A stretch of DNA of 25,936 nucleotides from a virus (IMGVR_UViG_2778261639_000014:1-25936), one strand, 5' to 3'. Positions 1-18,444 are shown, counted from the stretch's first letter. The notes: a model not told the origin generated them from the letters alone. Made by a program: numbers and translations.

Positions 1-30
1 CACTGCAAACAGATCCATAGCACAGCTCTT

Positions 31-936
31 TCACTGCTTAGCCTCTCCACCAAGGGCATTTACCAGAGCATCAACCAGGCACGAAATTTCACTGGTCAAC
101 AGGAAGAAATCTACGTCCAGTCGCTGCGCAACATCTTCACTATCAATATCAGAGTTCTGCTCAAGCAATTCATCCGCAAATTTGACGCTGGTAAGGCTGA
201 AGTTATGGTCCAGTGTAAATTTAATGCGGTTCTGCCAGTCGAGTGCCAACTTAGTGACGAGCTTGCCAGCTTCCAGGTGTGTGGAAATTTCATCGCTTCC
301 CAAATCCTGCTTTTTCACTCGGGCAATACCGCCACCCTCAAGCACTGCCTTAAGTTCTGCCGCATCCCCCATTTGAAATCCCTGTGGAGCACTACCATCA
401 CGTACCCAGTTGGTCAGCGTTAATTCAATGGGATTTTCAACACTCAGGGGAACAACAGGAAGAGAACCCAGAGACTTACGCATAAGCGCGAGCATATCCT
501 CTGCCTGCCGCGCGCTGGCATTGATATAGATACGTTTAGTTGAACCGTCGTAGATCGCCTGGATAACAGAAAACTTTGAAAAAGCCCGTGGCAGAAGAGA
601 ATGCAGAACTTCGTCTTTCAGGGAGTCCTTCTCTGTTTTCTTCAGTTTACGCGCTTGTTCTTGCTCAAGTTTTTCAATTTTTTCTTGAATAGCTCGCTGG
701 ATAACCGGCGGGTGAAGAATTTTTGTTTCGCGCTTTGCTTCAACAAGGATAAAACCATTTCCATGCATAGCGATAACTTCGGAATTATCACCAAATGGCG
801 ATACAAAACCGAACTTGGCCATATCCTGACTACCGCATGGCGTGAAAAGGATCATTTTCTTTTTATCTTCTAAGTCGGTCAGATCCGCCTCACGAGAAAG
901 TTTATAAATAGTAATGTTTTTCCAGTGCTTAAACAT
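31..936 (-). CDS. rdgC: RdgC-family recombination-associated protein (P1 hrdC-like)
   Basis: Track ORF 31..957 (TTG). Full-length similarity to RdgC as recalled from E. coli (blocks [52 protein letters not shown]). First ATG is at 936 ([16 protein letters not shown]). P1 carries an RdgC homolog (hrdC). Confidence 0.85.
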
Positions 937-1213
937 GTTGTAACCCTTGAATATCAACCACAGAAAGCTCGTCTTTGTAGAAAAAGGCTAGGTTGTGGCA
1001 CCCCCTCGTTTGAGCGTATGAGCTGGGACCAATTTCGTTCTTCCAGACAAATGGCTTCAAATCCGTACGGCGAAGCATAAAAACGCGATTTGTTCCGCTC
1101 TGATTCCCAATGAGGCAAAAGCCTTCTTTCACCTTGATAGCCTGCAAGTTGTCGAGTTCACCGCTGGTTACACGGCTATCGAACTCTTTGCGGCTTATTA
1201 GCTCCATCTGCAT
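929..1213 (-). CDS. Hypothetical small protein co-transcribed upstream of rdgC (position of P1 cra)
   Basis: Track ORF 929..1285. Start placed at ATG 1213 (GGAG 9 nt upstream) because the track start abuts the operator at 1285-1301. Stop overlaps the rdgC start by 8 nt. No recognisable domain. Confidence 0.4.
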
Positions 1214-1284
1214 CTGACGACTCCAAACAAATGCCCATCGAAGGGCGATAGCTGAATGGTACCGAAAACACGACATAAAAAACA

Positions 1285-1301
1285 ATATTTATTAGAGCAA
1301 T
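1285..1301. promoter_or_regulatory. C1 repressor operator-like site
   Basis: ATATTTATTAGAGCAAT on the + strand is the reverse complement of the asymmetric P1 C1 operator consensus ATTGCTCTAATAAATTT with one mismatch. Lies in the divergent region between the rdgC operon and the + strand genes. Confidence 0.6.
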
Positions 1302-1381
1302 TATGCAATGGTTGACGCCATGTAGACCACAAGTAACCTAAGTTAAAATAAAGAAAACCAGAGCAAATTATTGGTGATGCC

Positions 1382-1666
1382 GTGGCAAGTATTGCAACAA
1401 AAGACAGCATTTGTTCGGGGCACGGAGGATTCCCATCCAGGCCTCCTGTAGAGAGTGAACCACTACTTAAAGTCAACGGAGTCGAAGTGTTAGTTGATGG
1501 TAAGCAATATGCACAGCATACCGATGGAAACAGTACGCACGGTGGGCAAGCTATATCAACCAGGGCATGGTTTACCGTCAATAGTAAAGGGATCGTATGC
1601 GTTGGTGACCCTGTTTCATGCGGATCTACCGTAGCGTCCGGAGACGGCCTGGTTCAGGTAAGTTAG
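1382..1666 (+). CDS. PAAR-like small protein (possible spike-tip protein)
   Basis: 94-aa ORF with GTG start. Repeated elements SGHGG, VNGVEV, THGG, VNSKGIVCVGDPVSCG resemble PAAR or gp5.4-type repeats. Stop is followed 8 nt later by the next gene with an AGGAG SD. Confidence 0.4.
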   Translation: MASIATKDSICSGHGGFPSRPPVESEPLLKVNGVEVLVDGKQYAQHTDGNSTHGGQAISTRAWFTVNSKGIVCVGDPVSCGSTVASGDGLVQVS

Positions 1667-1674
1667 GAGATATC

Positions 1675-2463
1675 ATGCTGGAAAAAGACTACCAGTTATC
1701 CGCATATAAAAAATTGGCCGCCGCCGGTGGGATGAAAACACCTGGTGCCATAACATCGGCACGAAACTGTGCTAACACAGCAAAACTGCTTGCAGAAGAA
1801 TTGACCGGATTAATTCTGGATACAATTGTCTATCCCGACACTATTACCTGCTATGTTTCAACGATAAGAACAACCACAACCGGCTTAACGAACATTGGAG
1901 AACTGGCAACTAAGCACGCGGACCTGTTGGCTGGTTATGCAGATCTGTCAATGCTGCTTCAACTCGATATTGGTTGGGATGTTTACTGCCGTGCTAATGA
2001 GCGAGAAGTTTCAGAACTGCCGATCTCTATTGCCATTGGTGATGTGAATATTACTAAATCGCTTGAGGACGCTGTTAACGCGCTTAATACATCAAGTTTA
2101 GTCGCTGCTATGGGGGAGATTAACCAGACCCTTAACACTGGCTCAGTAAGCTCGTCAGGCTCTGGTTCAGGCGGCGGCACTGCCACTCCCCCACCAACAC
2201 TAACAGAAGAGCAAATTGAATCTCTGAAAGTAGCAACTGAACAGTTTGGGGTTGTTTTCAACCAGACAACAGCGCCCACAACTGCGTTACAACAGCAGTA
2301 TGAACGAGCGAATGAAAGCGCCAACGTAGCCATAACTGCTTATGGACATGCTATCGGTACCGCGCTTGCGGAAGCATCAGCAAATAAGGCCAGCACAGCC
2401 AGCGCAGTTGCTGCTTTGGTTCCTGATTCTGTTCTTGATGAATTAAACAAAGCGGCACAGTAA
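1675..2463 (+). CDS. Hypothetical protein with low-complexity linker
   Basis: Track ORF 1618..2463; ATG 1675 is preceded by AGGAG. 262 aa with Ser/Gly/Thr/Pro-rich linker (SSSGSGSGGGTATPPPT) and Ala-rich C terminus. No catalytic motif recognised. Confidence 0.55.
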   Translation: MLEKDYQLSAYKKLAAAGGMKTPGAITSARNCANTAKLLAEELTGLILDTIVYPDTITCYVSTIRTTTTGLTNIGELATKHADLLAGYADLSMLLQLDIGWDVYCRANEREVSELPISIAIGDVNITKSLEDAVNALNTSSLVAAMGEINQTLNTGSVSSSGSGSGGGTATPPPTLTEEQIESLKVATEQFGVVFNQTTAPTTALQQQYERANESANVAITAYGHAIGTALAEASANKASTASAVAALVPDSVLDELNKAAQ

Positions 2464-2502
2464 CAAAGGACTTCATTGATAATTTTTCTTCAGGAGGAAG
2501 AC

Positions 2503-2919
2503 ATGTCATTCTTTTCTACGTTAAAAACAGCTTTGTCTTTGAAGGAGAAACTTGCTGCTACTGGTGTTCTTGTTCTGATTTGCGCACTTGTTGGTGCTGG
2601 GTTTGCATGGGAACGTCATCAGCTAAAGCAAGCCATAGAGAAAATTGGCAGTCTTGATCAGGCTGTTAAGGAACGTGATAAGTCAATAATGGATCTTAAC
2701 CAGACCATTGAGACGATGAACAAAGCAGAGCAACATTTTCACAGCCAGGAAGTGAAAAATGAATCAGAGCAAGCCAAGTATGCTGACAGGCAAATGGAAC
2801 GAAAAGCTGAAGTTCAGAAACAACTGGTTGCGGCGGGTAATGTTCGCCAGCGCATTCCTGCTGACACTCAGCGGTTGCTCCGGGAGTCGATCAGCGAATT
2901 TAACGCCGACAAAGGTTAA
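2503..2919 (+). CDS. i-spanin-like membrane protein (position of P1 ppfA)
   Basis: Track ORF 2476..2919; ATG 2503 preceded by AGGAGG. N-terminal transmembrane helix (LAATGVLVLICALVGAGFAW) followed by about 100 aa of charged coiled-coil-like sequence. Confidence 0.5.
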   Translation: MSFFSTLKTALSLKEKLAATGVLVLICALVGAGFAWERHQLKQAIEKIGSLDQAVKERDKSIMDLNQTIETMNKAEQHFHSQEVKNESEQAKYADRQMERKAEVQKQLVAAGNVRQRIPADTQRLLRESISEFNADKG

Positions 2920-3085
2920 CCACCCTGCCCCCAAAAGTGCATTTATGTGCAGGATGCCGGAGTTTAGCAGTGAATATTTTGATGATCTGCCAGCGTATAT
3001 CCTCGATACAGAAACGATGCTGATGGGGATTAACAGGAAGAATCGCAATGTTAATGATTACAACCGCGCTATCAGCGGTAACTAA
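2759..3085 (+). CDS. Lipoprotein overlapping the preceding gene, o-spanin-like (position of P1 mlp)
   Basis: ORF in another frame overlapping the last ~160 nt of the upstream gene. Lipobox L-S-G-C after a hydrophobic stretch (FASAFLLTLSGC). Start uncertain: 2759 has an AGGAAG SD, internal ATGs at 2780 and 2840. Confidence 0.5.
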   Translation: MNQSKPSMLTGKWNEKLKFRNNWLRRVMFASAFLLTLSGCSGSRSANLTPTKVNHPAPKSAFMCRMPEFSSEYFDDLPAYILDTETMLMGINRKNRNVNDYNRAISGN

Positions 3086-3096
3086 AAGGGATTTTT

Positions 3097-3489
3097 ATGT
3101 CTGATAAAGTAACAGTTAAGCAAACTATCAACAAAGCGACTTCAATCTACAAAATTGAGCACATCACTGTTGGCAAGCCAGGATCTGAACAATACCGTCA
3201 TGCTTTCGAGCTTGCCGCTCAGCTTGGTTTAAAACACCCGGATTGCATTGAGCATGTATTTCCGACCTATGCTGATGAGCAATGTACTCATGTTCTTACC
3301 GAAGAGGATTTTTTCAGCACTGAAGAACGAGAAGGCGTTGATCGCTGCATTGGTGTGATTTGCTCTTCAGTGAGTTATGAGTTATTCCCTAATGTCCATG
3401 AAAATGGTGGTATTGGATACCAATTCCTGTACGAAGGCGATGAGCTTAAATGTTATGAACATGGTCTTCTTATCGAAAGCGTAGAATAA
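3097..3489 (+). CDS. Hypothetical protein (position of P1 upfA)
   Basis: 130-aa ORF with AAGGGA SD. Acidic, Cys/His-containing, no recognised domain. Lies immediately upstream of the plasmid origin. Confidence 0.55.
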   Translation: MSDKVTVKQTINKATSIYKIEHITVGKPGSEQYRHAFELAAQLGLKHPDCIEHVFPTYADEQCTHVLTEEDFFSTEEREGVDRCIGVICSSVSYELFPNVHENGGIGYQFLYEGDELKCYEHGLLIESVE

Positions 3490-3502
3490 TACCCTTCCTT
3501 CC

Positions 3503-3528
3503 AACCGGCTATGTTGGCCGGTTTATTC
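3503..3528 (+). terminator. Intrinsic terminator-like hairpin
   Basis: Inverted repeat AACCGGC / GCCGGTT with 7-nt loop followed by TTTATT, starting 14 nt after the upstream stop codon. Confidence 0.45.
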
Positions 3529-3529
3529 A

Positions 3530-3760
3530 ACTTATCCACAGCATAGATCCAATAAACAGATCCCAAAGAGAACCTAGGAAGATCCAAAGAAGATCCCGGA
3601 TCGCTGTAAGCCGCGCCGTTCATGGCCTGAAACGGGATCAACATTGACTATACGCGATTTTATGTTGACTGTGTGCGATTTTATGTTGACTGCACGCGAT
3701 TTATTGTTGACTATACGCGACAGAAACGTTGACTGTACGCGATTTTAGAGCCTGAATATT
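3530..3760. other. Plasmid replication origin (P1 oriR-like)
   Basis: DnaA box TTATCCACA (3532-3540), five GATC sites in AGATCC heptamer-like repeats (3546-3602), then five direct iterons. Same layout as P1 oriR. Confidence 0.8.
3644..3747 (+). repeat. incC-like iteron array (5 direct repeats)
   Basis: Five copies of TTGACT-N4-GCGAT(TT) starting at 3644, 3665, 3686, 3707 and 3729 (21-22 bp period), immediately upstream of repA. Confidence 0.85.
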
Positions 3761-3823
3761 CACAGCTGTTGATAACAGTCATCTAAATTAACGCCAGGCC
3801 GCGCCACACATGGAGAAACCACG

Positions 3824-4708
3824 ATGCCGGAAGAAAGTAAAGGCTTCCTTAGCGTTGAAGAAGTTGCAGGAAATACAGGAGAAATCCACAGCCTGAAGCC
3901 CAATAACAACAGCACTATACAACCTATCGCTTTGTTGCGCTTAGGTGTGTTTGTGCCAACCTTAAAATCTACCAATGTGGCACTACGTCGCGGATCGTCA
4001 GTTACTACAAACACAACGAACGCAACCGAAGAACTATCAAGCCTTAAAATTGTTGAGCAGGAAGGCTATGAGGGAATTGAAATTCATGGCCCACGCCTGG
4101 ATATGGATACTGATTTTAAGGTGTGGGTGGGCATAACCTCCGCGTTGTTTGACTACGCACCTGATGATGACGGCATAATCACCCTGCCATTCTCCGAGTT
4201 TGCCGATCGATGCGGCTATCCACGTAAGCGCCTTTCAAAGGCGTTCCGTAAAAGTATTGATGACTCTCTGACACGCATTCAGCAGACAGTTGTCAAATTC
4301 CGCTTCCCGGCGGCAAAAGGTCATCTCAATAACATTAACGTCAACTTGTTGGCATATAGCAGCCTGAATACCGAGCTTGATGTTATCGAGATCCAGCCGC
4401 AGAAACAGCTATCTGAACTTTACTATGTTGACTATAAGCGAATCCTGAAGCTGAAGATGCTGGATAAGCTCGGGCGCAAAGAGACGGCCAAGGTGCTGTA
4501 TACATTCTTTGAGGCTCTACCCGCCAACCCGGCACCTGTCAGCATTGAGCGCCTTAGAGCAAGGCTTAATCTCAAATCATCCGTTAGCGTGCAAAATAGC
4601 GTTATCAGAAAAGCCATGAAAGATTTGGAAGCTATTGAATATCTTAAATTTTCAGAGATAAAAAACGGCAGGAAAATCGGCTTCCAGATTCATAAGCGCA
4701 ATCCATAA
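3824..4708 (+). CDS. repA: Iteron-binding replication initiator RepA (diverged P1 type)
   Basis: 294-aa ORF with GGAGAAA SD. Homologous to P1 RepA as recalled (VQP.AL.RLGVFVP, GPRLDMDTDFK.W.G, YTF.E.LP.NP.P.S, C-terminal HSRNP-like) but only about half the positions conserved. Flanked by iteron arrays. Confidence 0.85.
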   Translation: MPEESKGFLSVEEVAGNTGEIHSLKPNNNSTIQPIALLRLGVFVPTLKSTNVALRRGSSVTTNTTNATEELSSLKIVEQEGYEGIEIHGPRLDMDTDFKVWVGITSALFDYAPDDDGIITLPFSEFADRCGYPRKRLSKAFRKSIDDSLTRIQQTVVKFRFPAAKGHLNNINVNLLAYSSLNTELDVIEIQPQKQLSELYYVDYKRILKLKMLDKLGRKETAKVLYTFFEALPANPAPVSIERLRARLNLKSSVSVQNSVIRKAMKDLEAIEYLKFSEIKNGRKIGFQIHKRNP

Positions 4709-4710
4709 TA

Positions 4711-4965
4711 TTGACTATATGCGATAGCGAGAAGTTGACTATAGGCGACATTCGTTGACGCTGGTGGATTTTTGCTGGCGTCAATATTCTGCAAGTCGCT
4801 ATTGAGATGGCTTTTAGGGTCATTTCATCGCGTATAGTCAACGTTTCTCCCGACAATATCTTACATAGTCGATCTTTGGTGGAGTTAAATCGACTACAGT
4901 CAACTTTTGACTGTAGTCACATCGCGCATAGTCAACTATTCACATTAACCTTCGCGCATAGTCAA
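4711..4965. repeat. incA-like copy-control iteron array
   Basis: At least eight copies of the 14-bp iteron core (TTGACTATATGCGA, TTGACTATAGGCGA, TCGCGTATAGTCAA, TCGACTACAGTCAA, TTGACTGTAGTCAC, TCGCGCATAGTCAA x2) in both orientations downstream of repA. Confidence 0.8.
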
Positions 4966-5000
4966 CATTTGCGCGGTTCTCATCAAGCAGTGGTATTGAT

Positions 5001-5810
5001 ATGCAAGAAGAGAAACAACACTACCTCTACGTTCTGGTGCCGGAGAACGGAGATACTTTTAAAATCGGTATTTCATGTGGTCCATTGGCACGGTTTAAAG
5101 GGCTACAAGTGAGTCCCGATTTTGCGCTTTCACGGGTCTATCGTGGTACGCGTTTGGCAATGGTTAATCTTGAGCGGGCTTTACACGCAACCTTTTTCCC
5201 CTGGAATGCGCCGTGGGAGAAAAGCGCCGGTGGCGGGCATACTGAATGGTTTACACGAGAGTGTCTTGATAAGGTTTTGGCTCATATCGAATATCTAAAT
5301 GATATGTGGGGAGGGATTCTCGAGCGCATTAAGTCGAATGATTTACTTCAGCGTCCAGTAGATGCTGCTCGCTCTTTCGAAAAAGAGTTGGATGTTACTT
5401 CTATCGTGACTTTCAAAGATGACGCAGGAATGAGGGACGTGGCTTATGTCTCCATATCTGGCTATGAACCGGACGCGATCCGCGCTCAATGTGAATTGCT
5501 GAAAGCAGTGTTTATGCTTCGGACTAAATATCCCTGGGAGACAGGGCGGGTGTGCTTCCCTATGGAAGAGTTAACCGCCACCATTGATTCCCAGCTTTAC
5601 CACGATAATCCAGAGAAGTTTTTTAGCCTTTTAGCCGGTAATGGGCTTAACTGTGTGTCCGGGCTGGGGCGAAGTAGAATCCAACATGCCTCGCTCTTCG
5701 GTCCCTTCTTTTACGATCGACACGGGTACTTTGAGACTGAACTTCCGGCGCTTACGCGTGCTATAGATACTATCGATTTCGAACGATTATTCGCTGCTCT
5801 TAGCAAATAA
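5001..5810 (+). CDS. GIY-YIG-like (T5orf172/MUG113-type) domain protein
   Basis: 269 aa. N-terminal pattern YLYVLVPENGDTFKIGIS...R...GGGHTEWF fits the GIY-YIG-like T5orf172 fold. C-terminal ~170 aa unassigned. Has its own terminator. Confidence 0.6.
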   Translation: MQEEKQHYLYVLVPENGDTFKIGISCGPLARFKGLQVSPDFALSRVYRGTRLAMVNLERALHATFFPWNAPWEKSAGGGHTEWFTRECLDKVLAHIEYLNDMWGGILERIKSNDLLQRPVDAARSFEKELDVTSIVTFKDDAGMRDVAYVSISGYEPDAIRAQCELLKAVFMLRTKYPWETGRVCFPMEELTATIDSQLYHDNPEKFFSLLAGNGLNCVSGLGRSRIQHASLFGPFFYDRHGYFETELPALTRAIDTIDFERLFAALSK

Positions 5811-5817
5811 CACTGAT

Positions 5818-5838
5818 GCCCCTGAACGGGGCTTTTTT
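5818..5838 (+). terminator. Rho-independent terminator
   Basis: GCCCC-TGAAC-GGGGC hairpin followed by TTTTTT, 8 nt after the stop of the 5001..5810 gene. Confidence 0.7.
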
Positions 5839-5884
5839 GTGTCCTCCTTGTAACTCTCAATCGTGCAAAATGAACCAAACATGC

Positions 5885-5935
5885 AGAGAATGCTATGTAC
5901 AAGCATCTGTGCATACATTATTATTTTATGCAGCA
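5885..5935 (+). promoter_or_regulatory. par promoter/operator region
   Basis: AT-rich region 40-90 bp upstream of parA with two inverted repeats: ATGCT-N7-AGCAT (~5890-5906) and TGCATA-N11-TATGCA (~5910-5932). Consistent with an autoregulated par operator. Confidence 0.5.
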
Positions 5936-5978
5936 TTTTTAAGTAAATTCAAAAATACAGCATAAAGGATGACTTTCG

Positions 5979-7175
5979 ATGAGTGATTCCAGCCAGCTTC
6001 ACAAGGTTGCTCAAAGAGCAAACAGAATGCTCAATGTTCTGACTGAACAAGTACAGTTGCAAAAGGATGAGCTACACGCGAACGAGTTTTACCAGGTCTA
6101 TGCGAAAGCGGCACTGGCAAAATTGCCTCTACTGACTCGAGCGAACGTTGACTATGCCGTAAGTGAAATGGAAGAAAAGGGTTATGTTTTCGATAAACGC
6201 CCTGCTGGCTCTTCAATGAAATATGCGATGTCAATTCAGAACATCATTGACATATATGAACATCGCGGAGTGCCAAAATACCGGGATCGCTACAGCGAAG
6301 CGTATGTGATTTTCATCTCCAATCTTAAAGGCGGTGTGTCAAAAACTGTATCGACGGTTTCTCTGGCGCATGCAATGCGTGCCCACCCTCATCTTCTGAT
6401 GGAAGATTTAAGAATTCTGGTTATTGACCTTGATCCGCAATCTTCAGCAACGATGTTTTTAAGCCATAAACACTCTATTGGTATCGTAAACGCAACATCT
6501 GCACAGGCTATGTTGCAGAATGTAAGCCGTGAAGAGCTGTTAGAGGAGTTTATTGTTCCTTCTGTTGTACCTGGGGTTGACGTTATGCCTGCGTCGATTG
6601 ACGATGCCTTTATTGCATCCGATTGGAGAGAGCTGTGCAATGAGCATCTACCGGGTCAGAACATCCATGCTGTCCTGAAAGAAAATGTGATTGATAAGCT
6701 GAAGAGCGATTATGACTTTATCCTCGTTGATAGTGGTCCTCACCTTGACGCCTTCCTGAAAAATGCTTTGGCCTCGGCCAATATACTGTTTACACCTCTG
6801 CCGCCAGCAACTGTCGATTTCCACTCATCGCTTAAATACGTTGCCCGCCTTCCTGAGTTGGTAAAACTCATTTCGGATGAAGGCTGCGAGTGCCAGCTTG
6901 CGACTAACATTGGTTTTATGTCCAAGTTGAGTAACAAGGCAGATCATAAGTATTGCCATAGCCTGGCTAAAGAAGTGTTCGGTGGAGATATGCTCGATGT
7001 CGTCCTCCCTCGCCTTGACGGTTTTGAACGTTGCGGCGAGTCTTTTGACACTGTTATTTCAGCTAACCCGGCAACGTATGTTGGTAGTGCTGATGCATTG
7101 AAGAACGCGCGAATTGCCGCGGAAGATTTTGCTAAAGCAGTTTTTGACCGTATTGAATTTATCAGATCTAACTGA
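5979..7175 (+). CDS. parA: Partition ATPase ParA (type Ia, P1 type)
   Basis: 398 aa. Deviant Walker A KGGVSKT and ~100-aa N-terminal extension typical of P1 ParA / F SopA. Length and sequence match P1 ParA as recalled. Confidence 0.95.
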   Translation: MSDSSQLHKVAQRANRMLNVLTEQVQLQKDELHANEFYQVYAKAALAKLPLLTRANVDYAVSEMEEKGYVFDKRPAGSSMKYAMSIQNIIDIYEHRGVPKYRDRYSEAYVIFISNLKGGVSKTVSTVSLAHAMRAHPHLLMEDLRILVIDLDPQSSATMFLSHKHSIGIVNATSAQAMLQNVSREELLEEFIVPSVVPGVDVMPASIDDAFIASDWRELCNEHLPGQNIHAVLKENVIDKLKSDYDFILVDSGPHLDAFLKNALASANILFTPLPPATVDFHSSLKYVARLPELVKLISDEGCECQLATNIGFMSKLSNKADHKYCHSLAKEVFGGDMLDVVLPRLDGFERCGESFDTVISANPATYVGSADALKNARIAAEDFAKAVFDRIEFIRSN

Positions 7176-7191
7176 GGAGTAAGAAACCCCC

Positions 7192-8193
7192 ATGTCAAAG
7201 AAAAACAGACCAACAATTGGGCGAACCCTTAATCCTTCAATATTAAGCGGATTTGATAGTTCTTCAGCCTCTGGCGATCGAGTCGAGCAGGTATTCAAGT
7301 TATCAACTGGTCGCCAGGCCACATTTATTGAAGAGGTAATACCTCCGAACCAGGTAGAAAGCGATACCTTTGTTGATCAGCATAACAACGGGCGTGACCA
7401 GGCATCTCTTACGCCAAAATCATTAAAAAGTATCCGAAGCACTATTAAGCATCAGCAATTTTACCCTGCAATAGGTGTTAGACGGGCTACAGGGAAAATT
7501 GAAATTTTGGATGGTTCCCGGCGTCGAGCTTCTGCCATCTTAGAGAACGTAGGGTTGCGGGTTTTAGTCACGGACCAGGAGATCAGCGTTCAGGAAGCGC
7601 AAAATTTAGCGAAAGACGTTCAGACAGCATTGCAGCACAGCATTCGAGAAATAGGTCTGCGTTTGATGCGAATGAAAAATGATGGGATGAGTCAGAAGGA
7701 TATTGCAGCCAAAGAAGGGCTGTCTCAGGCGAAGGTCACGCGTGCTCTCCAGGCAGCGAGTGCTCCGGAAGAATTAGTCGCCCTTTTCCCTGTGCAGTCG
7801 GAATTAACCTTTTCGGACTACAAAACGCTTTGTGCTGTTGGCGACGAAATGGGGAACAAGAATTTAGAGTTTGATCAGCTTATTCAAAACATATCCCCGG
7901 AAATAAACGACATCTTATCCATTGAAGAAATGGCCGAAGATGAAGTTAAAAATAAAATCCTGCGCTTGATAACAAAGGAAGCCTCACTACTCACGGATAA
8001 AGGTTCTAAAGATAAGTCCGTAGTTACTGAATTATGGAAATTTGAGGACAAGGATCGCTTTGCAAGGAAGCGCGTGAAAGGCCGGGCATTTTCTTATGAG
8101 TTTAATCGACTTTCAAAAGAGCTACAGGAAGAACTCGACAGGATGATTGGGCATATCCTTAGAAAGAGCCTCGATAAAAAGCCGAAGCCTTAA
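7192..8193 (+). CDS. parB: Centromere-binding protein ParB (P1 type)
   Basis: 333 aa with GAGGAG SD. N terminus MSKKNRPTIGRTLNPS and length match P1 ParB as recalled. Directly followed by parS. Confidence 0.95.
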   Translation: MSKKNRPTIGRTLNPSILSGFDSSSASGDRVEQVFKLSTGRQATFIEEVIPPNQVESDTFVDQHNNGRDQASLTPKSLKSIRSTIKHQQFYPAIGVRRATGKIEILDGSRRRASAILENVGLRVLVTDQEISVQEAQNLAKDVQTALQHSIREIGLRLMRMKNDGMSQKDIAAKEGLSQAKVTRALQAASAPEELVALFPVQSELTFSDYKTLCAVGDEMGNKNLEFDQLIQNISPEINDILSIEEMAEDEVKNKILRLITKEASLLTDKGSKDKSVVTELWKFEDKDRFARKRVKGRAFSYEFNRLSKELQEELDRMIGHILRKSLDKKPKP

Positions 8194-8197
8194 ACTT

Positions 8198-8285
8198 TCG
8201 CCATTCAAATTTCACTATTAACATACTGTTTTTAAAGTAAATCCATCTAAAATTTCAAGGTGAAATCGCCACGATTTCACCTTGG
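8198..8285. other. parS: Partition site parS (P1 type)
   Basis: Box B TCGCCA (8198-8203), box A ATTTCAC (8209-8215), AT-rich ~45 bp spacer (IHF-bend-like), inverted box A GTGAAAT (8260-8266), box B TCGCCA (8266-8271), box A ATTTCAC (8274-8280). Confidence 0.85.
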
Positions 8286-8337
8286 ATTTTACCTTCCGCC
8301 CCTACTCCCGAAAAAAATAAAAAAATTGCTTGTCACG

Positions 8338-8368
8338 AGAAAGTCAACAAGTGACTTTCAATAAAATC
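8338..8368 (+). promoter_or_regulatory. Late (Lpa-dependent-type) promoter upstream of the gene-23-like operon
   Basis: Inverted repeat AAAGTCA-N5-TGACTTT followed 3 nt later by a -10 TAAAAT and no -35. Fits the organisation recalled for P1 late promoters. Confidence 0.5.
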
Positions 8369-8397
8369 TCTTCCGAAAAGGGATTCACACAAGTGCC

Positions 8398-10125
8398 TTG
8401 TGTTTAAGGAAGAGTAAATTGAGTAACTTACGCGAATACCAGAATCGTATTGCAGATATCGCAAAACGCTCTAAAGCTGTGCTTGGCTGGGCAAGCACTG
8501 CGCAGTTCGGTACTGATAACCAATTCATTAAAGATGATGCCGCGCGTGCCGCATCTATCCTTGAAGCTGCACGTAAAGACCCGGTTTTTGCGGGTATCTC
8601 TGATAATGCCACCGCTCAAATCGCTACAGCGTGGGCAAGTGCACTGGCTGACTACGCCGCAGCACATAAATCTATGCCGCGTCCGGAAATTCTGGCCTCC
8701 TGCCACCAGACGCTGGAAAACTGCCTGATTGAGTCCACCCGCAACAGCATGGATGCCACTAATAAAGCGATGCTGGAATCCGTCGCAGCAGAGATGATGA
8801 GCGTTTCTGACGGTGTTATGCGTCTGCCTTTATTCCTCGCGATGATCCTGCCTGTTCAGTTGGGGGCAGCTACCGCTGATGCGTGTACCTTCATTCCGGT
8901 TACGCGTGACCAGTCCGACATCTATGAAGTCTTTAACGTGGCAGGTTCCTCTTTTGGTTCTTATGCTGCTGGTGATGTTCTGGACATGCAATCCGTCGGT
9001 GTGTACAGCCAGTTACGCCGCCGCTATGTGCTGGTGGCAAGCTCCGATGGCACCAGCAAAACCGCAACCTTCAAGATGGAAGACTTCGAAGGCCAGAATG
9101 TACCAATCCGAAAAGGTCGCACTAACATCTACGTTAACCGTATTAAGTCTGTTGTTGATAACGGTTCCGGCAGCCTACTTCACTCGTTTACTAATGCTGC
9201 TGGTGAGCAAATCACTGTTACTTGCTCTCTGAACTACAACATTGGTCAGATTGCCCTGTCGTTCTCCAAAGCGCCGGATAAAGGCACTGAGATCGCAATT
9301 GAGACGGAAATCAATATTGAAGCCGCTCCTGAGCTGATCCCGCTGATCAACCACGAAATGAAGAAATACACCCTGTTCCCAAGCCAGTTCGTTATCGCGG
9401 CTGAGCACACGGTACAGGCGGCGTATGAAGCACAGCGTGAATTTGGTCTGGACCTGGGTTCCCTACAGTTCCGCACCCTGAAAGAATACCTGTCCCATGA
9501 ACAGGATATGTTGCGTCTCCGCATCATGATCTGGCGTACTCTTGCGACCGACACCTTTGACATCGCTCTGCCGGTTAACCAGTCCTTTGATGTATGGGCA
9601 ACCATCATTCGTGGCAAATTCCAGACTGTATATCGCGACATTATTGAGCGCGTTAAATCTTCTGGTGCGATGGGGATGTTTGCTGGTGCTGATGCAGCAT
9701 CTTTCTTCAAACAGTTGCCGAAGGATTTCTTCCAGCCAGCCGAAGACTATATCCAGACTCCGTATGTTCACTACATCGGTACCCTGTTCGGTAACGTGAA
9801 AGTGTACGAAGTACCTGCTGGTATTTGTAAGAACTTAACGACAGAGAACATTCAGTTCAGCTCGATGGATGTGCTGTGCTACGTCCGTGATGAAAATCCG
9901 GGTAAAGCAGGCTTCGTGACTGGTGATGCTGTCCCGGCCATCCCGTTCCAGCATCCGACCACTCCGGCGCTGGTCAACCGTACCACGCTGTGGGGTTCGG
10001 CTATCAACGATATGCACCCACGCAACGGCGCTGATTACTTCACTCGTGTAACGCTGACAATGGCCAAAAAAGGCGGGCTTAACTTTATAAGCGGCGACAC
10101 GATTGATGCCGGTGACTCTGAGTAA
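8398..10125 (+). CDS. Structural protein in the position of P1 gene 23 (putative major head protein)
   Basis: Track start TTG 8398; better start TTG 8419 with AAGGAAG SD. ~568 aa with strong codon bias. First gene after parS behind a late promoter. Assigned by position and expression signature, not by a verified motif. Confidence 0.6.
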   Translation: MCLRKSKLSNLREYQNRIADIAKRSKAVLGWASTAQFGTDNQFIKDDAARAASILEAARKDPVFAGISDNATAQIATAWASALADYAAAHKSMPRPEILASCHQTLENCLIESTRNSMDATNKAMLESVAAEMMSVSDGVMRLPLFLAMILPVQLGAATADACTFIPVTRDQSDIYEVFNVAGSSFGSYAAGDVLDMQSVGVYSQLRRRYVLVASSDGTSKTATFKMEDFEGQNVPIRKGRTNIYVNRIKSVVDNGSGSLLHSFTNAAGEQITVTCSLNYNIGQIALSFSKAPDKGTEIAIETEINIEAAPELIPLINHEMKKYTLFPSQFVIAAEHTVQAAYEAQREFGLDLGSLQFRTLKEYLSHEQDMLRLRIMIWRTLATDTFDIALPVNQSFDVWATIIRGKFQTVYRDIIERVKSSGAMGMFAGADAASFFKQLPKDFFQPAEDYIQTPYVHYIGTLFGNVKVYEVPAGICKNLTTENIQFSSMDVLCYVRDENPGKAGFVTGDAVPAIPFQHPTTPALVNRTTLWGSAINDMHPRNGADYFTRVTLTMAKKGGLNFISGDTIDAGDSE

Positions 10126-10151
10126 TCAGGGGAAGTTCTCCGTTTAACATA

Positions 10152-10170
10152 GCGCCCCCGTGCGGGGCGC
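10152..10170 (+). other. Intercistronic GC-rich hairpin without U-tract
   Basis: GCGCCCC-CGTGC-GGGGCGC between the gene-23-like and sheath genes. No T-run follows, so probably an RNA processing or stability element rather than a terminator. Confidence 0.4.
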
Positions 10171-10185
10171 ATAACAGGGAAAGTT

Positions 10186-11775
10186 ATGTCTCAATATTCA
10201 ATTCAACAGTCATTAGGTAATGCATCCGGCGTCGCTGTTAGCCCGATCAATGCCGATGCGACGTTATCTACCGGTGTTGCATTAAATAGCAGCTTGTGGG
10301 CTGGTATTGGCGTATTTGCGCGTGGCAAGCCGTTTACTGTTCTTGCGGTTACTGAGTCCAATTACGAAGATGTTCTCGGCGAACCGCTGAAGCCGTCTTC
10401 CGGCTCACAGTTCGAACCAATTCGCCATGTGTACGAAGCTATTCAGCAAACGTCTGGTTATGTTGTCCGTGCTGTTCCGGATGATGCGAAGTTCCCGATT
10501 ATTATGTTCGATGAATCAGGCGAACCGGCTTACAGTGCGTTGCCATACGGTTCTGAAATTGAACTTGATAGCGGCGAAGCCTTTGCTATCTACGTTGATG
10601 ATGGTGATCCGTGTATTTCACCTACCCGTGAGTTAACCATCGAAACGGCAACAGCGGACAGCGCAGGTAATGAACGCTTCCTCCTGAAACTGACCCAGAC
10701 GACTTCGCTCGGCGTGGTAACGACCCTGGAGACACACACTGTGTCTTTGGCGGAAGAAGCAAAAGATGACATGGGCCGCTTGTGTTATCTGCCTACGGCT
10801 CTGGAAGCCCGTTCTAAATATCTGCGCGCGGTTGTTAATGAAGAGCTGATTTCGACGGCGAAAGTAACAAATAAAAAATCGCTGGCGTTCACTGGCGGTA
10901 CCAACGGCGATCAGTCGAACATTTCCACTGCTGCTTACCTGCGCGCGGTGAAAGTGCTGAACAATGCGCCGTACATGTACACCGCTGTTCTCGGCCTGGG
11001 TTGCTATGACAATGCGGCGATCACTGCGTTAGGTAATATCTGTTCTGATCGCTTGATTGATGGCTTCTTTGATGTCAAACCGACATTGACGTACACGGAA
11101 GCGATCTCTGCTGTTGAAGATACCGGTTTACTTGGTACCGATTATGTAAGCTGTGCTGTCTATCATTTCCCGTTCTCCTGCAAAGACAAATGGACCCAAT
11201 CCCGCGTGGTCTTCGGTCTGTCTGGCGCGGCGTATGCGGCGAAAGCTCGTGGCGTCAAGAAAAACTCCGATGTCGGCGGTTGGCATTACTCACCGGCTGG
11301 TGAAGAACGTGCCGTCATTGCTCGTGCATCACTTCAACCGCTGTATCCGGAAGACACCCCGGACGAAGAAGCTATGGTCAAGGGCCGACTCAATAAAGTA
11401 TCTGTAGGTACTTCGGGCCAGATGATCATCGATGATGCTTTAACTTGCTGCACGCAGGACAACTATCTGCATTTCCAGCACGTCCCATCCCTGATGAATG
11501 CAATCAGCCGTTTCTTTGTCCAGTTAGCCCGACAGATGAAGCATAACCCGGACGGCATTACTGAGTCTGGCCTGACTAAAGGGATGACCAAACTTTTGGA
11601 TCGCTTTGTCGCCTCCGGCGCTCTGGTGGCTCCTCGTGATCCTGATGCTGACGGTACAGAACCGTATGTGCTGAAAGTTACGCAGGCGGAATTCGATAAA
11701 TGGGAAGTAGTCTGGGCCTGCTGCCCGACTGGCGTAGCCCGTCGTATCCAGGGCGTACCGCTGCTTATTAAGTAA
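10186..11775 (+). CDS. Contractile tail sheath protein (putative, P1 gene 22-like)
   Basis: 529 aa. Contains GGWHYSPAG, resembling the G-x-W-x-x-P-A-G motif I associate with sheath proteins. Size fits a ~57 kDa sheath. Confidence 0.65.
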   Translation: MSQYSIQQSLGNASGVAVSPINADATLSTGVALNSSLWAGIGVFARGKPFTVLAVTESNYEDVLGEPLKPSSGSQFEPIRHVYEAIQQTSGYVVRAVPDDAKFPIIMFDESGEPAYSALPYGSEIELDSGEAFAIYVDDGDPCISPTRELTIETATADSAGNERFLLKLTQTTSLGVVTTLETHTVSLAEEAKDDMGRLCYLPTALEARSKYLRAVVNEELISTAKVTNKKSLAFTGGTNGDQSNISTAAYLRAVKVLNNAPYMYTAVLGLGCYDNAAITALGNICSDRLIDGFFDVKPTLTYTEAISAVEDTGLLGTDYVSCAVYHFPFSCKDKWTQSRVVFGLSGAAYAAKARGVKKNSDVGGWHYSPAGEERAVIARASLQPLYPEDTPDEEAMVKGRLNKVSVGTSGQMIIDDALTCCTQDNYLHFQHVPSLMNAISRFFVQLARQMKHNPDGITESGLTKGMTKLLDRFVASGALVAPRDPDADGTEPYVLKVTQAEFDKWEVVWACCPTGVARRIQGVPLLIK

Positions 11776-11784
11776 GGAAATACA

Positions 11785-12600
11785 ATGAGCAAAAACTTTT
11801 TTCAATCCGGGGCATTTTTGGGGAATGGACTGTCCCGTTTCGCTTTGAACTCTGATCCTGTGCAGCTGATGGAGTCTGCCCGAGCAAGCGCTGAACCGCC
11901 AACAGATCCGGTTATTAATAATAATCCGGAACCGGCGGCACAGACTAACGATAACGTTCCATCTGCCCCGGCTCCTGAGCAAATCCTGGAAGGGAAAGAC
12001 GGTAAAGAATGGACCGTCGAACAGGCGCACCAGATGATTCTGGAAGCTGCAAATCGAAGTGCTATGCAGAATGCGTTGAGTGATGCGGCCGACGCCGTTT
12101 TCGCCTGGGCTGATAGCGGTGATCTGACTTTCGACTCCCTTGATGGTTTCGTTCAGGCTATCGCTGGTATCTCTGATGACGACGACTCCGAAGTTACAGA
12201 AGAACAGGACGATGCCTATAACGAAGCATGGGCAAATGTTGCTGACTTCCTCGCAGCATGCGGTGTAGATGATGACCTGATCGAAGCACTGGCTGACGAT
12301 GAAGACGACGACGCAGCTGCTGATGTTGGTGCCTCTATCGCTGGTTTAGATAGCGACGACCGCGACGAACTGGAAGCGGCGTTTGTTGTTGCTGGCACTT
12401 CTGATGAAATGCTGACTGAAGCATTTAAGAAGGTTGTTCGTAATGGTGAGATCAAACTCATCCGTAAACGCCTGCGTAAAAAACGTCTGACTGCGGCTCA
12501 AAAATCGGCGCTGAAAAAAGCGCGTCGAAAAGCCCAGACCGGCGCGGCAAAACTTGCCCGCAAAAAGTCAATGAAACTGCGCCGTAAGCGCCTTGGCTAA
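11785..12600 (+). CDS. Charge-segregated protein (acidic body, basic C-terminal tail)
   Basis: 271 aa with AAGGAAA SD. Long D/E-rich stretches (DDDDSEVTEEQDD, DDEDDDAAADV) and a K/R-rich final ~50 aa (KRLRKKRLTAAQKSALKKARRKAQTGAAKLARKKSMKLRRKRLG). No enzymatic motif. Confidence 0.6.
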   Translation: MSKNFFQSGAFLGNGLSRFALNSDPVQLMESARASAEPPTDPVINNNPEPAAQTNDNVPSAPAPEQILEGKDGKEWTVEQAHQMILEAANRSAMQNALSDAADAVFAWADSGDLTFDSLDGFVQAIAGISDDDDSEVTEEQDDAYNEAWANVADFLAACGVDDDLIEALADDEDDDAAADVGASIAGLDSDDRDELEAAFVVAGTSDEMLTEAFKKVVRNGEIKLIRKRLRKKRLTAAQKSALKKARRKAQTGAAKLARKKSMKLRRKRLG

Positions 12601-12635
12601 AGGAGGAGGCCGGAGAACTCCGGCCTTTAACTTGA

Positions 12636-13217
12636 ATGGCACCTATACCTTATGGGGTTTACAGCCAGGCTGACGGTGTATCGCCATTTCTGAAAGTTAC
12701 TTTAACGAACTCTCAGTACCAGGTTACCGGATATATCAGCCAGGGGGCAGCAATGAACATGGCCCAGAATTGGGAAGCGCCGTTTACCGGTATGTCCATG
12801 GGGTCTGTTGCTGGTGCTTTCAGTGGTTTTGCGCAGGTTGGTACTGAAACAACGTCGGTGGCCCGTTGGAACAGCTTAATGGTTTGGGAAGGGGGGACAC
12901 CGCCGACGTTCACGCTGCCCGTAACTTTCATTGCTTTGAACAATCCATTCATTGAAGTTTCAGGCGCTATCGCCGCGTTGACAGCCATGATTAGCCCGGA
13001 ACTAAAAGCGGCCAATGTTGGTGGTCGAATCCCGGAACGTGTGACGCTAAACATTGGTCGCCGGATCAACATCACCGATGTCGCTATCCAGGACTTAAGT
13101 TTTGATCTCGATGCGCCAAGGGACAGTAATGGATATTTCCTGAAAAACACCGTCAACCTCCAGTTGACCGGTTCTTCGATATATAACAGCTCCGATATTG
13201 TTCGGGCGTTCCAGTAA
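12636..13217 (+). CDS. Hypothetical late-operon protein (tail component candidate)
   Basis: 193-aa ORF preceded by a GGCCGGAG/CTCCGGCC hairpin. Gly/Ala/Thr-rich. No diagnostic motif. Confidence 0.5.
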   Translation: MAPIPYGVYSQADGVSPFLKVTLTNSQYQVTGYISQGAAMNMAQNWEAPFTGMSMGSVAGAFSGFAQVGTETTSVARWNSLMVWEGGTPPTFTLPVTFIALNNPFIEVSGAIAALTAMISPELKAANVGGRIPERVTLNIGRRINITDVAIQDLSFDLDAPRDSNGYFLKNTVNLQLTGSSIYNSSDIVRAFQ

Positions 13218-13228
13218 AAGGATTTTAT

Positions 13229-13738
13229 ATGGGGCACAATAACACTAAGGGAAACCGTAAATTTATTAAGGGCCGCTATACTGCCAACGCGGCCAAAGGC
13301 GAACGACTGGTATCTTCTGAATTCCAGCTCACTTTTGCAGGCCATGAAGATATCAGCGTACTGGTTCGCACGTCGCAAATTCCTGAAATGACCCGCGAGG
13401 ATGTGGAGGACTATGGTCCGAATGGTGTGAAGTTCAACCAGCACGGTCCAATTCGAAACTCTGGGGAAATCCAGGTCCAGTGCGTGGAGACTATCGAAGG
13501 CGATATTCTTCAGTTCATTAAGGATCGCATTGCGGCGAAGGACTATGTTGATATCACGATGGCTGCGACCCCTGAATCCAAATCTTCCGGGGTTAACGCT
13601 GTGACTAAAGCTGCTACAACAATTGAAATGTTGGACTGCAAAATCTACAGTGATGCAATCGACTTTAGTACCGAAGATGTGACTGCCGCTGTGCGCCCGT
13701 CACTTCGTATCGTCTACAACTGGATTGATTGGGATTAA
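13229..13738 (+). CDS. Tail tube protein candidate
   Basis: 169 aa with AAAGGA SD. Last gene of the sheath-containing operon, followed by a strong terminator. Size fits a myovirus tube protein; assigned by size and position only. Confidence 0.45.
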   Translation: MGHNNTKGNRKFIKGRYTANAAKGERLVSSEFQLTFAGHEDISVLVRTSQIPEMTREDVEDYGPNGVKFNQHGPIRNSGEIQVQCVETIEGDILQFIKDRIAAKDYVDITMAATPESKSSGVNAVTKAATTIEMLDCKIYSDAIDFSTEDVTAAVRPSLRIVYNWIDWD

Positions 13739-13757
13739 GAGCCATCCCTTGTATTTT

Positions 13758-13782
13758 AAAGCTCCTTCGGGAGCTTTTTTTA
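13758..13782 (+). terminator. Rho-independent terminator of the late structural operon
   Basis: AAAGCTCC-TTCG-GGAGCTTT hairpin followed by T7, 20 nt after the stop codon. Confidence 0.85.
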
Positions 13783-13909
13783 TAACTATTTTATATAAAA
13801 ATGCATCGATAACATTGTCTGGAGTTTTATGTTAGATTATTAATGTTCTAATAAACTACAATTATTGCGGTAGATGTTTGTGCCTGTACTGTTAAAGGGG
13901 GACTCTAAA

Positions 13910-14506
13910 ATGGCTGTGATTCCAATGTCGTACTCCCCGGGTACTGTCGCTCGTCGATTTTCGATCCTGGACGGAGTTACCATCCAGGGTGTGCTTTACC
14001 AGGTTATATGGGATTCCAAAACCCCATTTGCAGCTGTAATAGAGGCTGCGCCTTCTGTTATCGATGGTGATATGCGGCATAAGGTTGTCGCTACTCTTGA
14101 ACTTCAACGTCGCCCGCAGCTTGAAGGCGTACTGGTAAGGAAGTTCTGGGAGGATAGCGATGTTGGCCAGATTGAAGGTATCGTGGTTGATGGAACTGTC
14201 CGGGATGTCGGTTTAGCTACTTTTGTTTACGAAACCGTAGCCTCAAAAGCTGGTGTTGTTTTGCTCAGTGATAATGAGCAATACGAAGGTGGAAAAGCTC
14301 TTTGGCAACATATCGCCCGTCGCTCTTCCGAGCTAAAAGTGTTTATCCTCGACACCGATGCTGCTCAGTATTACCCGTTTGACGGCGAACGTGTTTGCTA
14401 TGACGGGAAAAGTATTCCTGAATCCGAGATATGGAGTGAACATCCGGATCGAAGTAAGCATGGGGTTGTTCTTGTCGCAGAATCCATAACTGGAAAGGCG
14501 GCATAG
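13910..14506 (+). CDS. Hypothetical protein (orphan gene with its own promoter)
   Basis: Track ORF 13874..14506; ATG 13910 preceded by AAAGGGGGA. 198 aa. Preceded by a ~100-bp AT-rich promoter-like region. No recognisable domain. Confidence 0.55.
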   Translation: MAVIPMSYSPGTVARRFSILDGVTIQGVLYQVIWDSKTPFAAVIEAAPSVIDGDMRHKVVATLELQRRPQLEGVLVRKFWEDSDVGQIEGIVVDGTVRDVGLATFVYETVASKAGVVLLSDNEQYEGGKALWQHIARRSSELKVFILDTDAAQYYPFDGERVCYDGKSIPESEIWSEHPDRSKHGVVLVAESITGKAA

Positions 14507-14688
14507 CAGTAAAAAATTCCTTGCTCCTTAAAAGGGGAGAGGGTTAATCTACGTATGCTAAGCATAGGTATGGCCCCGGTTAATGTTAAGCGTTGTGCGG
14601 GACGCATAATGTTTACTGGGGCTTTCTTCTATCTGCTTTTCGGGGAATGCCTGAAGCAGATAGCCTCAAGCACACCGCAGCGGGTGTA

Positions 14689-14934
14689 TCAATGTCTGGC
14701 TTTTTTTCTATAGAAATCACCTGGAAGGGTGAATATCCACATCAGAAGAAATGTTGCAGCAAACATGATCCCTAATGGCCAGACCGCGCCAAAGAAAATC
14801 CATACTAAGATCTCCTCTGCTCGTTCTTTGCGGTCGATATCGACAAGCATTTTTCGGCTGATCATGTATACACAGAAGCCAATACAAACATATCCTGCAA
14901 AAGCGATCGCTAACTGTAAAAAATCAGATTGCAT
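14689..14934 (-). CDS. Small two-helix membrane protein
   Basis: Track ORF 14689..15015; ATG at 14934 preceded by GAGG. 81 aa with two hydrophobic helices (LQLAIAFAGYVCIGFCVYMI; ILVWIFFGAVWPLGIMFAATFLLMWIF) and a basic C terminus. Confidence 0.5.
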   Translation of the reverse strand: MQSDFLQLAIAFAGYVCIGFCVYMISRKMLVDIDRKERAEEILVWIFFGAVWPLGIMFAATFLLMWIFTLPGDFYRKKARH

Positions 14935-14964
14935 CTCCGACCTCAAACTGAAAACGCCAGGTGA

Positions 14965-14981
14965 CTCCAGATTAGAGCAAT
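14965..14981. promoter_or_regulatory. C1 operator-like site between repL and the small membrane-protein gene
   Basis: Core ATTAGAGCAAT (14971-14981) matches the conserved half of the C1 operator; the upstream half is degenerate. Lies 4 bp below the repL stop and ~35 bp upstream of the membrane-protein start. Confidence 0.45.
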
Positions 14982-17867: not shown

Positions 17868-18085
17868 AAAACCCCCTGAACGTCAGCAGAGAAGGGGAGG
17901 TTCCAGTAACTAAGTGAATTGCGCGAGTTAGTAGAAAAACGGGCAGTAAAAATGCAGGGGCCATCAGGCAATTGAGAGCGTGCTTCGTCTTCAGTTGCTG
18001 CGATAACGAAGTGATAGTGGTGTTTTTGGCAGGAGTAAAAGCGCCAGATAAATTCAGGATGAGTAGGGGTAGGGATAGTAGCCAC
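17864..18085 (-). CDS. icd: Icd-like small protein overlapping the ant start
   Basis: 73-aa ORF with GTG start and AGGAGG SD 9 nt upstream; its stop overlaps the ant start. Same size and arrangement as P1 icd as recalled. An alternative 81-aa frame (17842..18087) is also open. Confidence 0.5.
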   Translation of the reverse strand: MATIPTPTHPEFIWRFYSCQKHHYHFVIAATEDEARSQLPDGPCIFTARFSTNSRNSLSYWNLPFSADVQGVL

Positions 18086-18270
18086 AATGGCAGCCTCCTT
18101 TTGCTAATTTAAGGAGCTACCGCGTGAGGTTCCAATCTCAATGGCGGTAGCACTGACTGGGTTGGAACTACCGGCGCAAAAGGGAACCGGCCTGCCTTTC
18201 GGCAGCCCAGCCAGCACTACCATTGATCTCGGAGCTATGTGCTACGTATGGCTGTGCGATGGCATGACAC

Positions 18271-18410: not shown

Positions 18411-18424
18411 GTAGTTAAAAAACA

Positions 18425-18441: not shown

Positions 18442-18444
18442 TAT

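Follow-up and report, generated by a model that had tools for sequence, protein, structure and literature searches.

The 25,936-nt stretch of viral DNA analyzed here (IMGVR_UViG_2778261639_000014:1-25936), referred to below as the window, belongs over its whole 25.9 kb to a P1-like phage-plasmid (Punavirus). Positions 3530-8285 hold a maintenance block, composed of an origin with DnaA boxes, GATC sites and direct repeats, the initiator gene repA, a downstream control array, a gene for a T5orf172 protein, and the partition locus parA-parB-parS (Table 1). Very probably, this is the maintenance block of a member of the SJ46/RCS47/JL22 lineage that carries a p0111-type replicon instead of the IncY replicon of P1.

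In blastn comparisons with phage P1 (NC_005856), window positions 1-3617 and 5877-13780 aligned at 95.6% and 98.1% identity, respectively, and no alignment was obtained across positions 3618-5876 apart from a 59-nt stretch of 75% identity within repA. The genes on the left flank (dmt, hrdC/rdgC, uhr, upfC, upfB, ppfA, mlp and upfA) and on the right flank (parA, parB and genes 23, 22 and 21) are as in P1. The 4,756-nt region itself had full-length identities of 98.5-98.9% to phages RCS47, SJ46, JL22, phi456 and others, and was up to 99.3% identical to many plasmids of E. coli, Salmonella, Shigella and Klebsiella. To pO111_2 of E. coli O111:H- 11128, the plasmid from which the PlasmidFinder p0111 reference was taken, the identity was 98.8% over 4,811 nt. 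This comparison was made on NC_013370, the RefSeq twin of AP010962.

Organization of the origin and control array

The A+T-rich block with its five GATC sites is presumed to be the part of the origin where DNA unwinding and control by methylation take place; one more GATC, the sixth, lies at 3636, directly next to the first origin repeat. The five origin repeats start at 3644, 3665, 3686, 3707 and 3729, and thus have the same spacing (21/21/21/22 bp) as the incC repeats of P1. A search of the window with the pattern TTGACTNNNNGCGA, allowing at most one mismatch, gave 14 matches where 2.06 were expected, a number reached in none of 100 shuffled sequences, and 12 of the matches fell within 3644-4965. 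A weight matrix built from the origin repeats scored 18-30 bits at these 12 sites and no more than 9 bits elsewhere in the 25.9 kb. The first control repeat begins at the base following the repA stop, the same as in P1.

Several of these elements are shared with a diverged P1-like contig, L008 (Logan ERR2144811, 95.7 kb), which was reached via a distant homologue of the T5orf172 protein and in which gp23 is 80% identical to that of the window. The gene order of L008 (upf genes, repA, T5orf172, parA, parB, gene 23) is that of the window. At the place of the two DnaA-box-like 9-mers, a perfect DnaA box, TTATCCACA, is present in L008 in inverted orientation. The repeats and boxes are thus conserved across a divergence that amounts to 16% in RepA, which supports their function.

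Two further conserved elements were observed around the arrays. A GC-rich 16-mer (GCCGCGCC...) lies at 3610-3625 and again at 3798-3813, flanking the origin repeat array on both sides; P1 carries CAGGCCGCGCCAC at the equivalent left position, and L008 has kept GTAAGCCGCGCC. The 16-mer may serve the origin as a functional spacer. In the control array, CATTGACGCTGGTGGATTTT, which comprises the first 20 nt of the half-repeat palindrome together with the preceding CA, is 100% conserved in L008, though the surrounding array is not.

An earlier reading of the window, made from the sequence alone, had described a P1-like origin layout, and its DnaA box, five GATC heptamers, five repeats and downstream array all proved to lie where it had placed them. 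Three corrections were needed. The incA-like array is present and does contain repeats in both orientations, but it has only six clear repeats against the nine of P1, and an additional repeat lies inside repA. The elements listed in the inventory of the module were all found, but the 269-aa T5orf172 gene had been overlooked.

Table 1 Features of the maintenance block and of other parts of the window
Feature	Position	Strand	Details
DnaA box, TTATCCACA	3532-3540	+	Perfect; left end of plasmid origin; also conserved in L008
A+T-rich block with five GATC (Dam) sites	3545-3605	.	GATC at 3546, 3559, 3581, 3592 and 3599, in AGATCC[A/C]-type heptamers
incC-like origin array	3642-3745	+	Five direct 19-bp repeats, 19-bp units starting at 3642, 3663, 3684, 3705 and 3727, core TTGACT-N4-GCGA[T/C]; putative RepA-binding sites; 25-30 bits each
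Two DnaA-box-like 9-mers	3756-3775		ATATTCACA, 3756-3764, +; TTATCAACA, 3767-3775, -; one mismatch each; between repeats and repA
repA	3824-4708	+	294-aa initiator, p0111 type, repeat-binding by homology; GGAG ribosome-binding site upstream
Repeat-like site, TGTTGACTATAAGCGAATC (TTGACTATAAGCGA)	4426-4444	+	Inside repA coding sequence; weight matrix 18 bits
incA-like control array	4709-4967		Six repeats: 4709-4727 +, 4733-4751 +, 4825-4843 -, 4887-4905 -, 4919-4937 -, 4949-4967 -
Half-repeat palindrome, TTGACGCTGGTGGATTTTTGCTGGCGTCAA	4755-4784	.	Within control array
T5orf172 (GIY-YIG-like) gene	5001-5810	+	269 aa; between control array and parA; part of replaced cassette
Intrinsic-terminator-like hairpin, GCCCCTGAACGGGGC	5818-5842	+	Followed by T-run; closes cassette
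P1 par promoter and ParA operator	5896-5981	+	-35 TGTACA, 5896-5901; -10 TATTAT, 5919-5924
parA	5979-7175	+	Type Ia partition ATPase with N-terminal helix-turn-helix; Pfam HTH_54, AAA_31
parB	7192-8193	+	Centromere-binding protein; Pfam ParB PF08775
parS centromere	8198-8280	+	B1 8198-8203 (TCGCCA), A1 8209-8215, IHF 8219-8231, A2 8252-8258, A3 8260-8266, B2 8266-8271 (TCGCCA), A4 8274-8280
ant (immI)	16824-17867	-	
icd (immI)			
C4 RNA (immI)	18140-18227	-	
isrK-like RNA (immI)	18272-18350	-	
pacB-like	18445-19929	-	After immI, replacing sim/pmgC/tub/sit
pacA-like	19929-21122	-	After immI, replacing sim/pmgC/tub/sit
lpa	21208-21660	-	After immI, replacing sim/pmgC/tub/sit
DUF968 gene	21749-22792	-	After immI, replacing sim/pmgC/tub/sit
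doc	23004-23384	-	After immI, replacing sim/pmgC/tub/sit
humD	23678-24067	-	After immI, replacing sim/pmgC/tub/sit

A replicon of the p0111 type

The initiator is 42% identical to P1 RepA in a local BLASTP alignment (E = 9e-71) and 39.5% identical globally, and so lies far from the near-identity that marks an IncY replicon; the RepA proteins of P1 and P7 are 100% identical to each other. The repeats also differ in kind, as the consensus TGTTGACT-N4-GCGATTT shows no similarity to the 19-mer of P1 and P7, GATGTGTGCTGGAGGGAAA. In contrast, the RepA of the window is 100% identical to that of RCS47, and with respect to pO111_2 (NC_013370) 874 of 885 nt of repA (98.8%) and 292 of 294 residues of RepA were identical, above the level of roughly at least 95% nucleotide identity in repA that is applied in p0111 typing. 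In Pfam, RepA scored 27.3 bits for Rep3_C (cut-off 21.1) and 22.0 bits for Rep3_N, slightly short of the cut-off of 22.4, and P1 RepA shows the mirror-image pattern; the homology between the two RepA proteins is unambiguous all the same. Among the NCBIfam models, none matched RepA or the T5orf172 protein. The sequence-only reading, which had held that RepA and the repeats differ substantially from those of P1, was thereby borne out: alignment with P1 and P7 and replicon typing gave p0111 and not IncY, with a RepA identity well short of the ~90% that would have spoken for a P1 replicon.

This replicon is widespread. In PLSDB, the rep cassette occurs in 404 plasmids, the P1 par half in 547 and the whole module in 382, so that almost all p0111 replicons are linked to P1-type par. 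Of 5,426 complete E. coli genomes, 419 had the p0111 cassette, 361 the IncY cassette of P1 and 564 a P1-type par locus. As a side observation, the MOB-suite typing in PLSDB labels the P1-like p0111 plasmid pS51_2 (NZ_CP015997.1) as 'IncHI1B', which is misleading for this replicon.

The p0111 replicon is typed apart from IncY in the literature. Among 55 elements, 24 were p0111 and 31 IncY, with repA' (p0111) plus gp57, a gene whose function is not known, in place of repA (IncY) (PMC9603915). For Salmonella phage-plasmids, 132 were p0111 and 94 IncY, with 17 switches of replication type inferred on the tree (PMC11165635), and 63 of 119 P1-like phage-plasmids were typed as p0111 in a further study (PMC10879196). 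The 42% identity of SJ46 RepA to P1 RepA had been noted earlier (PMC5241659). The module is therefore an already documented and very common rep-par combination, which the sequence-only reading described correctly. No description of the p0111 repeats turned up in the searchable papers. These also leave unstated the detailed make-up of the p0111 origin (the repeat consensus, the 5 + 6 (+1) copies, the DnaA boxes and the GATC block), the P1 type of its partition system and the exclusion to be expected, via parS, between p0111 and IncY elements with P1 par, though nothing in this is surprising. In E. coli and Salmonella, the very common p0111 branch of the P1-like phage-plasmids carries genes for extended-spectrum beta-lactamases, mcr-1 and virulence factors; the practical weight of the present analysis is small beyond correct annotation.

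A partition locus of the P1 type

The partition half of the block is that of P1. ParA is identical to P1 ParA at 397 of 398 residues (99.7%) and ParB at all 333, compared with 57% and 40% identity to the P7 proteins. All six ParB boxes of parS (A1-A4, B1 and B2) are identical to those of P1, including both TCGCCA specificity hexamers, where P7 has GTCCCG and TTCCCA. The 2.4 kb that run from the par promoter to the end of parS differ from P1 at 23 positions. Three of the differences lie in the promoter/operator region (5909, 5910 and 5943), the coordinates of which are those annotated in P1, shifted by -121. Another five fall in parS, two of them within the IHF site (8223-8224) and three within the spacer (8243-8245). 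ParA, ParB and parS are essentially P1-type, as first proposed from the sequence, and the box B hexamers are those of P1 and not of P7.

One paper describes the partition system as P7-type. A direct comparison made on phage RCS47 gave the opposite result, with RCS47 ParA and ParB identical to P1 at 397 of 398 and 333 of 333 residues and 57% and 40% identical to P7. The par locus of the p0111 module is accordingly P1-type.

Boundaries and origin of the replicon cassette

On the right, the cassette ends sharply at 5877-5880, shortly before the P1 par promoter, and from there identity to P1 resumes at ~99% through parS. On the left, identity to P1 declines gradually, from 97-99% in upfA to 93-94% over 3301-3500 and ~75% over 3501-3600, and is nil past 3617. 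A left recombination junction inside oriR at 3617, which would make the origin chimeric, was considered and rejected, since P1 identity is already down to ~75% over 3501-3600 and the DnaA/GATC block, ~75-80% identical to that of P1, is much closer to that of L008, to which it is nearly identical. On account of this closeness to L008, we assign the entire origin to the cassette. The partial likeness of the origin to P1 is then taken to reflect common descent combined with constraint by host factors, and not a junction within the origin.

The relatives of RepA bear on where the cassette came from. Outside the p0111 type, the nearest are RepFIB and SSU5-type initiators at 44-49% identity; P1 RepA stands at 42%. 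PLSDB holds 398 records with RepA matches of at least 80% identity, 392 of them at least 99% identical; all those inspected were in a P1-like context, and the next relatives reached no more than 48.6%. A scan of one genome per species for relatives of RepA returned one locus only, which was 100% identical, and no intermediates. The slightly greater closeness of RepA to RepFIB/SSU5-type initiators (45-49%) than to P1 RepA would be expected if a P1 backbone had acquired the rep cassette from a non-phage plasmid unrelated to it, for example of the RepFIB type, in a true mosaic between families; MOB-suite also gives the replicon a non-P1 name, and some annotators write 'RepFIB replication protein A'. 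We regard such an import as unlikely, given that all close matches inspected in PLSDB were in a P1-like context, that the species scan gave a single locus, that the DnaA/GATC block is homologous to that of P1, and that the slot between the upf genes and parA in L008 (gp23 80% identical) is filled by an 84% identical RepA with these repeats and by a T5orf172 gene.

The cassette instead looks like an alternative replicon allele that moves by recombination among P1-like phage-plasmids, and not like a one-off import. The term 'mosaic', used in the sequence-only reading, holds in that a non-P1 replicon is joined to P1 par; it does not imply import from an unrelated plasmid, as L008 has the same replicon family in the same slot. 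Together, L008 and P7, the latter with P1 rep and its own par, show that P1-like phage-plasmids combine their rep and par alleles independently of one another. Judged by these sequence comparisons, the window is one common rep/par combination and not a chimera with an unrelated plasmid.

Proposed mechanism and incompatibility

All steps of the mechanism proposed here are inferred by homology with P1. RepA monomers would bind the five origin repeats and, together with host DnaA, open the adjacent GATC-rich region, leading to theta replication, while Dam methylation and sequestration of the GATC sites by SeqA would time initiation. RepA on the origin repeats would also repress its own promoter, and the downstream array would keep copy number down, both through titration of RepA and through 'handcuffing', in which RepA pairs the array with the origin. 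For partition, ParB and IHF would assemble on parS, with the ParA ATPase segregating the copies and repressing the par promoter.

The determinants of incompatibility in P1 are the repeats (incA and incC) and parS (incB), as annotated in NC_005856, and do not include the DnaA/GATC block. As its RepA and repeats are unrelated in specificity to those of P1 and P7, the element in the window should neither exert nor feel incA/incC (IncY) incompatibility with these phages. It should still show P1-type partition (incB) incompatibility, since it has the very same ParB and parS specificity boxes as P1. p0111 plasmids and IncY plasmids with P1 par should thus exclude one another via parS, which qualifies published suggestions that they are 'theoretically compatible'.

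The distribution of P1-type par in the E. coli genomes bears on the second prediction. The 564 records lay in 564 genomes, with never two records in one genome, and a rough estimate assuming independence predicts about a dozen genomes with P1-type par on two records. The absence of such genomes is suggestive and consistent with partition incompatibility, and is no proof of it. It could also be taken to mean that the element is still replication-incompatible with P1, through the shared DnaA/GATC module or cross-binding of RepA, and that p0111 is a mere typing label. The left part of the origin is indeed ~75-80% homologous to that of P1, and no incompatibility experiment for p0111 was found in the searchable literature. 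This alternative nevertheless appears distinctly improbable to us, as the repeats have no recognisable similarity to those of P1, RepA is only 42% identical, the P1 DnaA/GATC block is not an incompatibility determinant, and the missing co-residence is equally explained by shared parS and immunity.

Several points weigh against the reading of the block as a p0111-type replicon that works in the manner of P1. Origin firing, autoregulation, handcuffing and both incompatibility predictions would all lean on homology with P1, and shared P1 immunity and population structure are confounders of the missing co-residence. Pfam Rep3_N scored 22.0 bits in RepA, just under its cut-off of 22.4, and a PDB sequence search with RepA gave nothing below E = 0.39, so that RepA matches no solved structure by sequence. 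Copy-number behaviour may differ from that of P1, as there are six control repeats and not nine. Finally, a scan for the sigma-70 consensus detected no repA promoter in or near the repeats, and the hexamer combinations picked out by eye around repeats 3-5 were unconvincing.

The missing promoter consensus, together with the fact that some carriers are large multi-replicon cointegrates, would also fit a RepA/repeat unit that is a decayed relic on plasmids replicating from another replicon. This is exceedingly improbable: RepA is an intact open reading frame at least 99% identical in 392 plasmids, the repeats and boxes have been kept in L008 despite the divergence of its RepA, and most carriers are P1-like plasmids of 90-100 kb without another replication-initiator gene in the regions inspected. 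Moreover, SJ46-type plasmids have been transformed and maintained (PMC5241659). At the sequence level, the reading of the block as a p0111-type replicon joined to P1-type partition is supported.

The T5orf172 gene

The T5orf172 domain is N-terminal, spanning residues 8-85 (Pfam PF10544, 27.6 bits against a cut-off of 20, E = 4.5e-6), and nuclease activity is at most predicted from it. The protein matches phrog_2876, which is annotated as of unknown function. It occurs in 401 PLSDB plasmids, never below 90% identity, a count close to that of the rep cassette (404), and only one distant homologue was found among 5.8 billion proteins, with 43% identity and in the same slot in L008. The gene was found next to p0111-family RepA genes only, and is strictly linked to this replicon family.

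This restriction, together with the retention of the slot in a relative at ~40% identity, suggests that the gene is maybe not a passenger. It is conceivable, if quite unlikely, that it encodes a nuclease promoting the spread of its own replicon cassette. Such a nuclease might cut the rival IncY replicon region, so that repair would copy in the p0111 cassette ('replicon homing'), or might act against co-infecting P1-like elements. If true, this activity would help explain the frequent switches of replication type on trees of P1-like elements and the present position of p0111 as the majority type. The linkage of the T5orf172 gene to the p0111 replicon family is the sole open thread of some interest.

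Other regions of the window

Synteny with P1 is lost after the immI locus, from window positions ~17753-18445 onward to 25936. In many P1-like plasmids, a second icd-ash-ant copy is found beside pacB and matches window positions 17753-19300 at 94.5%, and the junction is spanned by only 3 PLSDB plasmids, at 87-90% identity. This looks like recombination between two immI-like copies, leading to a large deletion or rearrangement.

The pmgF/rlfB/rlfA region of P1, a known variable region, is replaced at 13781-14970. The replacement contains a match to the sok antitoxin RNA (14502-14675, minus strand, 72.9 bits), which would indicate a hok/sok-type post-segregational killing module, and a 210-aa open reading frame (13874-14506) for which no Pfam match was obtained. 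In pO111_2, hokD is annotated at the equivalent position.

Comparison with known replicons and partition systems

With the IncY replicon of P1, the window shares the order of its elements (DnaA box, five GATC sites, five repeats at 21/21/21/22 bp, repA and a control array in both orientations from the repA stop), the protein family of the initiator (probably Rep3 WH1/WH2) and the genomic slot between upfA and parA. It differs in RepA (42% identity), in its unrelated repeats (TTGACT-N4-GCGA against GATGTGTGCTGGAGGGAAA in P1) and in having six control repeats instead of nine. It also has one DnaA box at the left end where P1 has two in tandem, a 7-bp gap relative to P1 removing the second, and an extra T5orf172 gene and terminator before parA. 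P1 has no counterpart of this gene, and the cassette measures 2,259 bp in the window against 1,500 bp in P1. From the P1 parA-parB-parS (incB) locus, the window retains promoter and operator, and the changes amount to two IHF-site, three spacer and three operator-region bases.

P7 is the reciprocal natural mosaic. Its RepA is 100% identical to that of P1 and its repeats are near-identical to those of P1, and it has its own par type, with ParA and ParB 57% and 40% identical to those of the window and the B boxes GTCCCG and TTCCCA. The RepFIB/SSU5-type initiators of Enterobacteriaceae plasmids and phage-plasmids belong to the same initiator family, with 44-49% identity over approximately the full length, and stand in a different genetic context.

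L008 resembles the window in RepA (84% identity), in having five TTGACT-N4-GCGA repeats spaced 21 bp apart, and in its DnaA/GATC block. It differs in a T5orf172 protein only 37% identical globally (43% by BLASTP), a much shorter control array, and ParA and ParB at 89% and 67% identity. Its parS-like site (L008:10330-10570) has P1-type A boxes, but box B2 is TCCCCA (TCGCCA in P1, TTCCCA in P7), with a ParB 67% identical to that of P1. L008 thus probably carries a third or further partition specificity, linked to a p0111-family replicon.

The nearest systems of all are pO111_2, RCS47, SJ46 and JL22, which have the same module with the same gene order (repA, T5orf172, parA, parB) and point differences only; the annotation of pO111_2 splits the T5orf172 gene into two fragments, whereas the gene is intact in the window.

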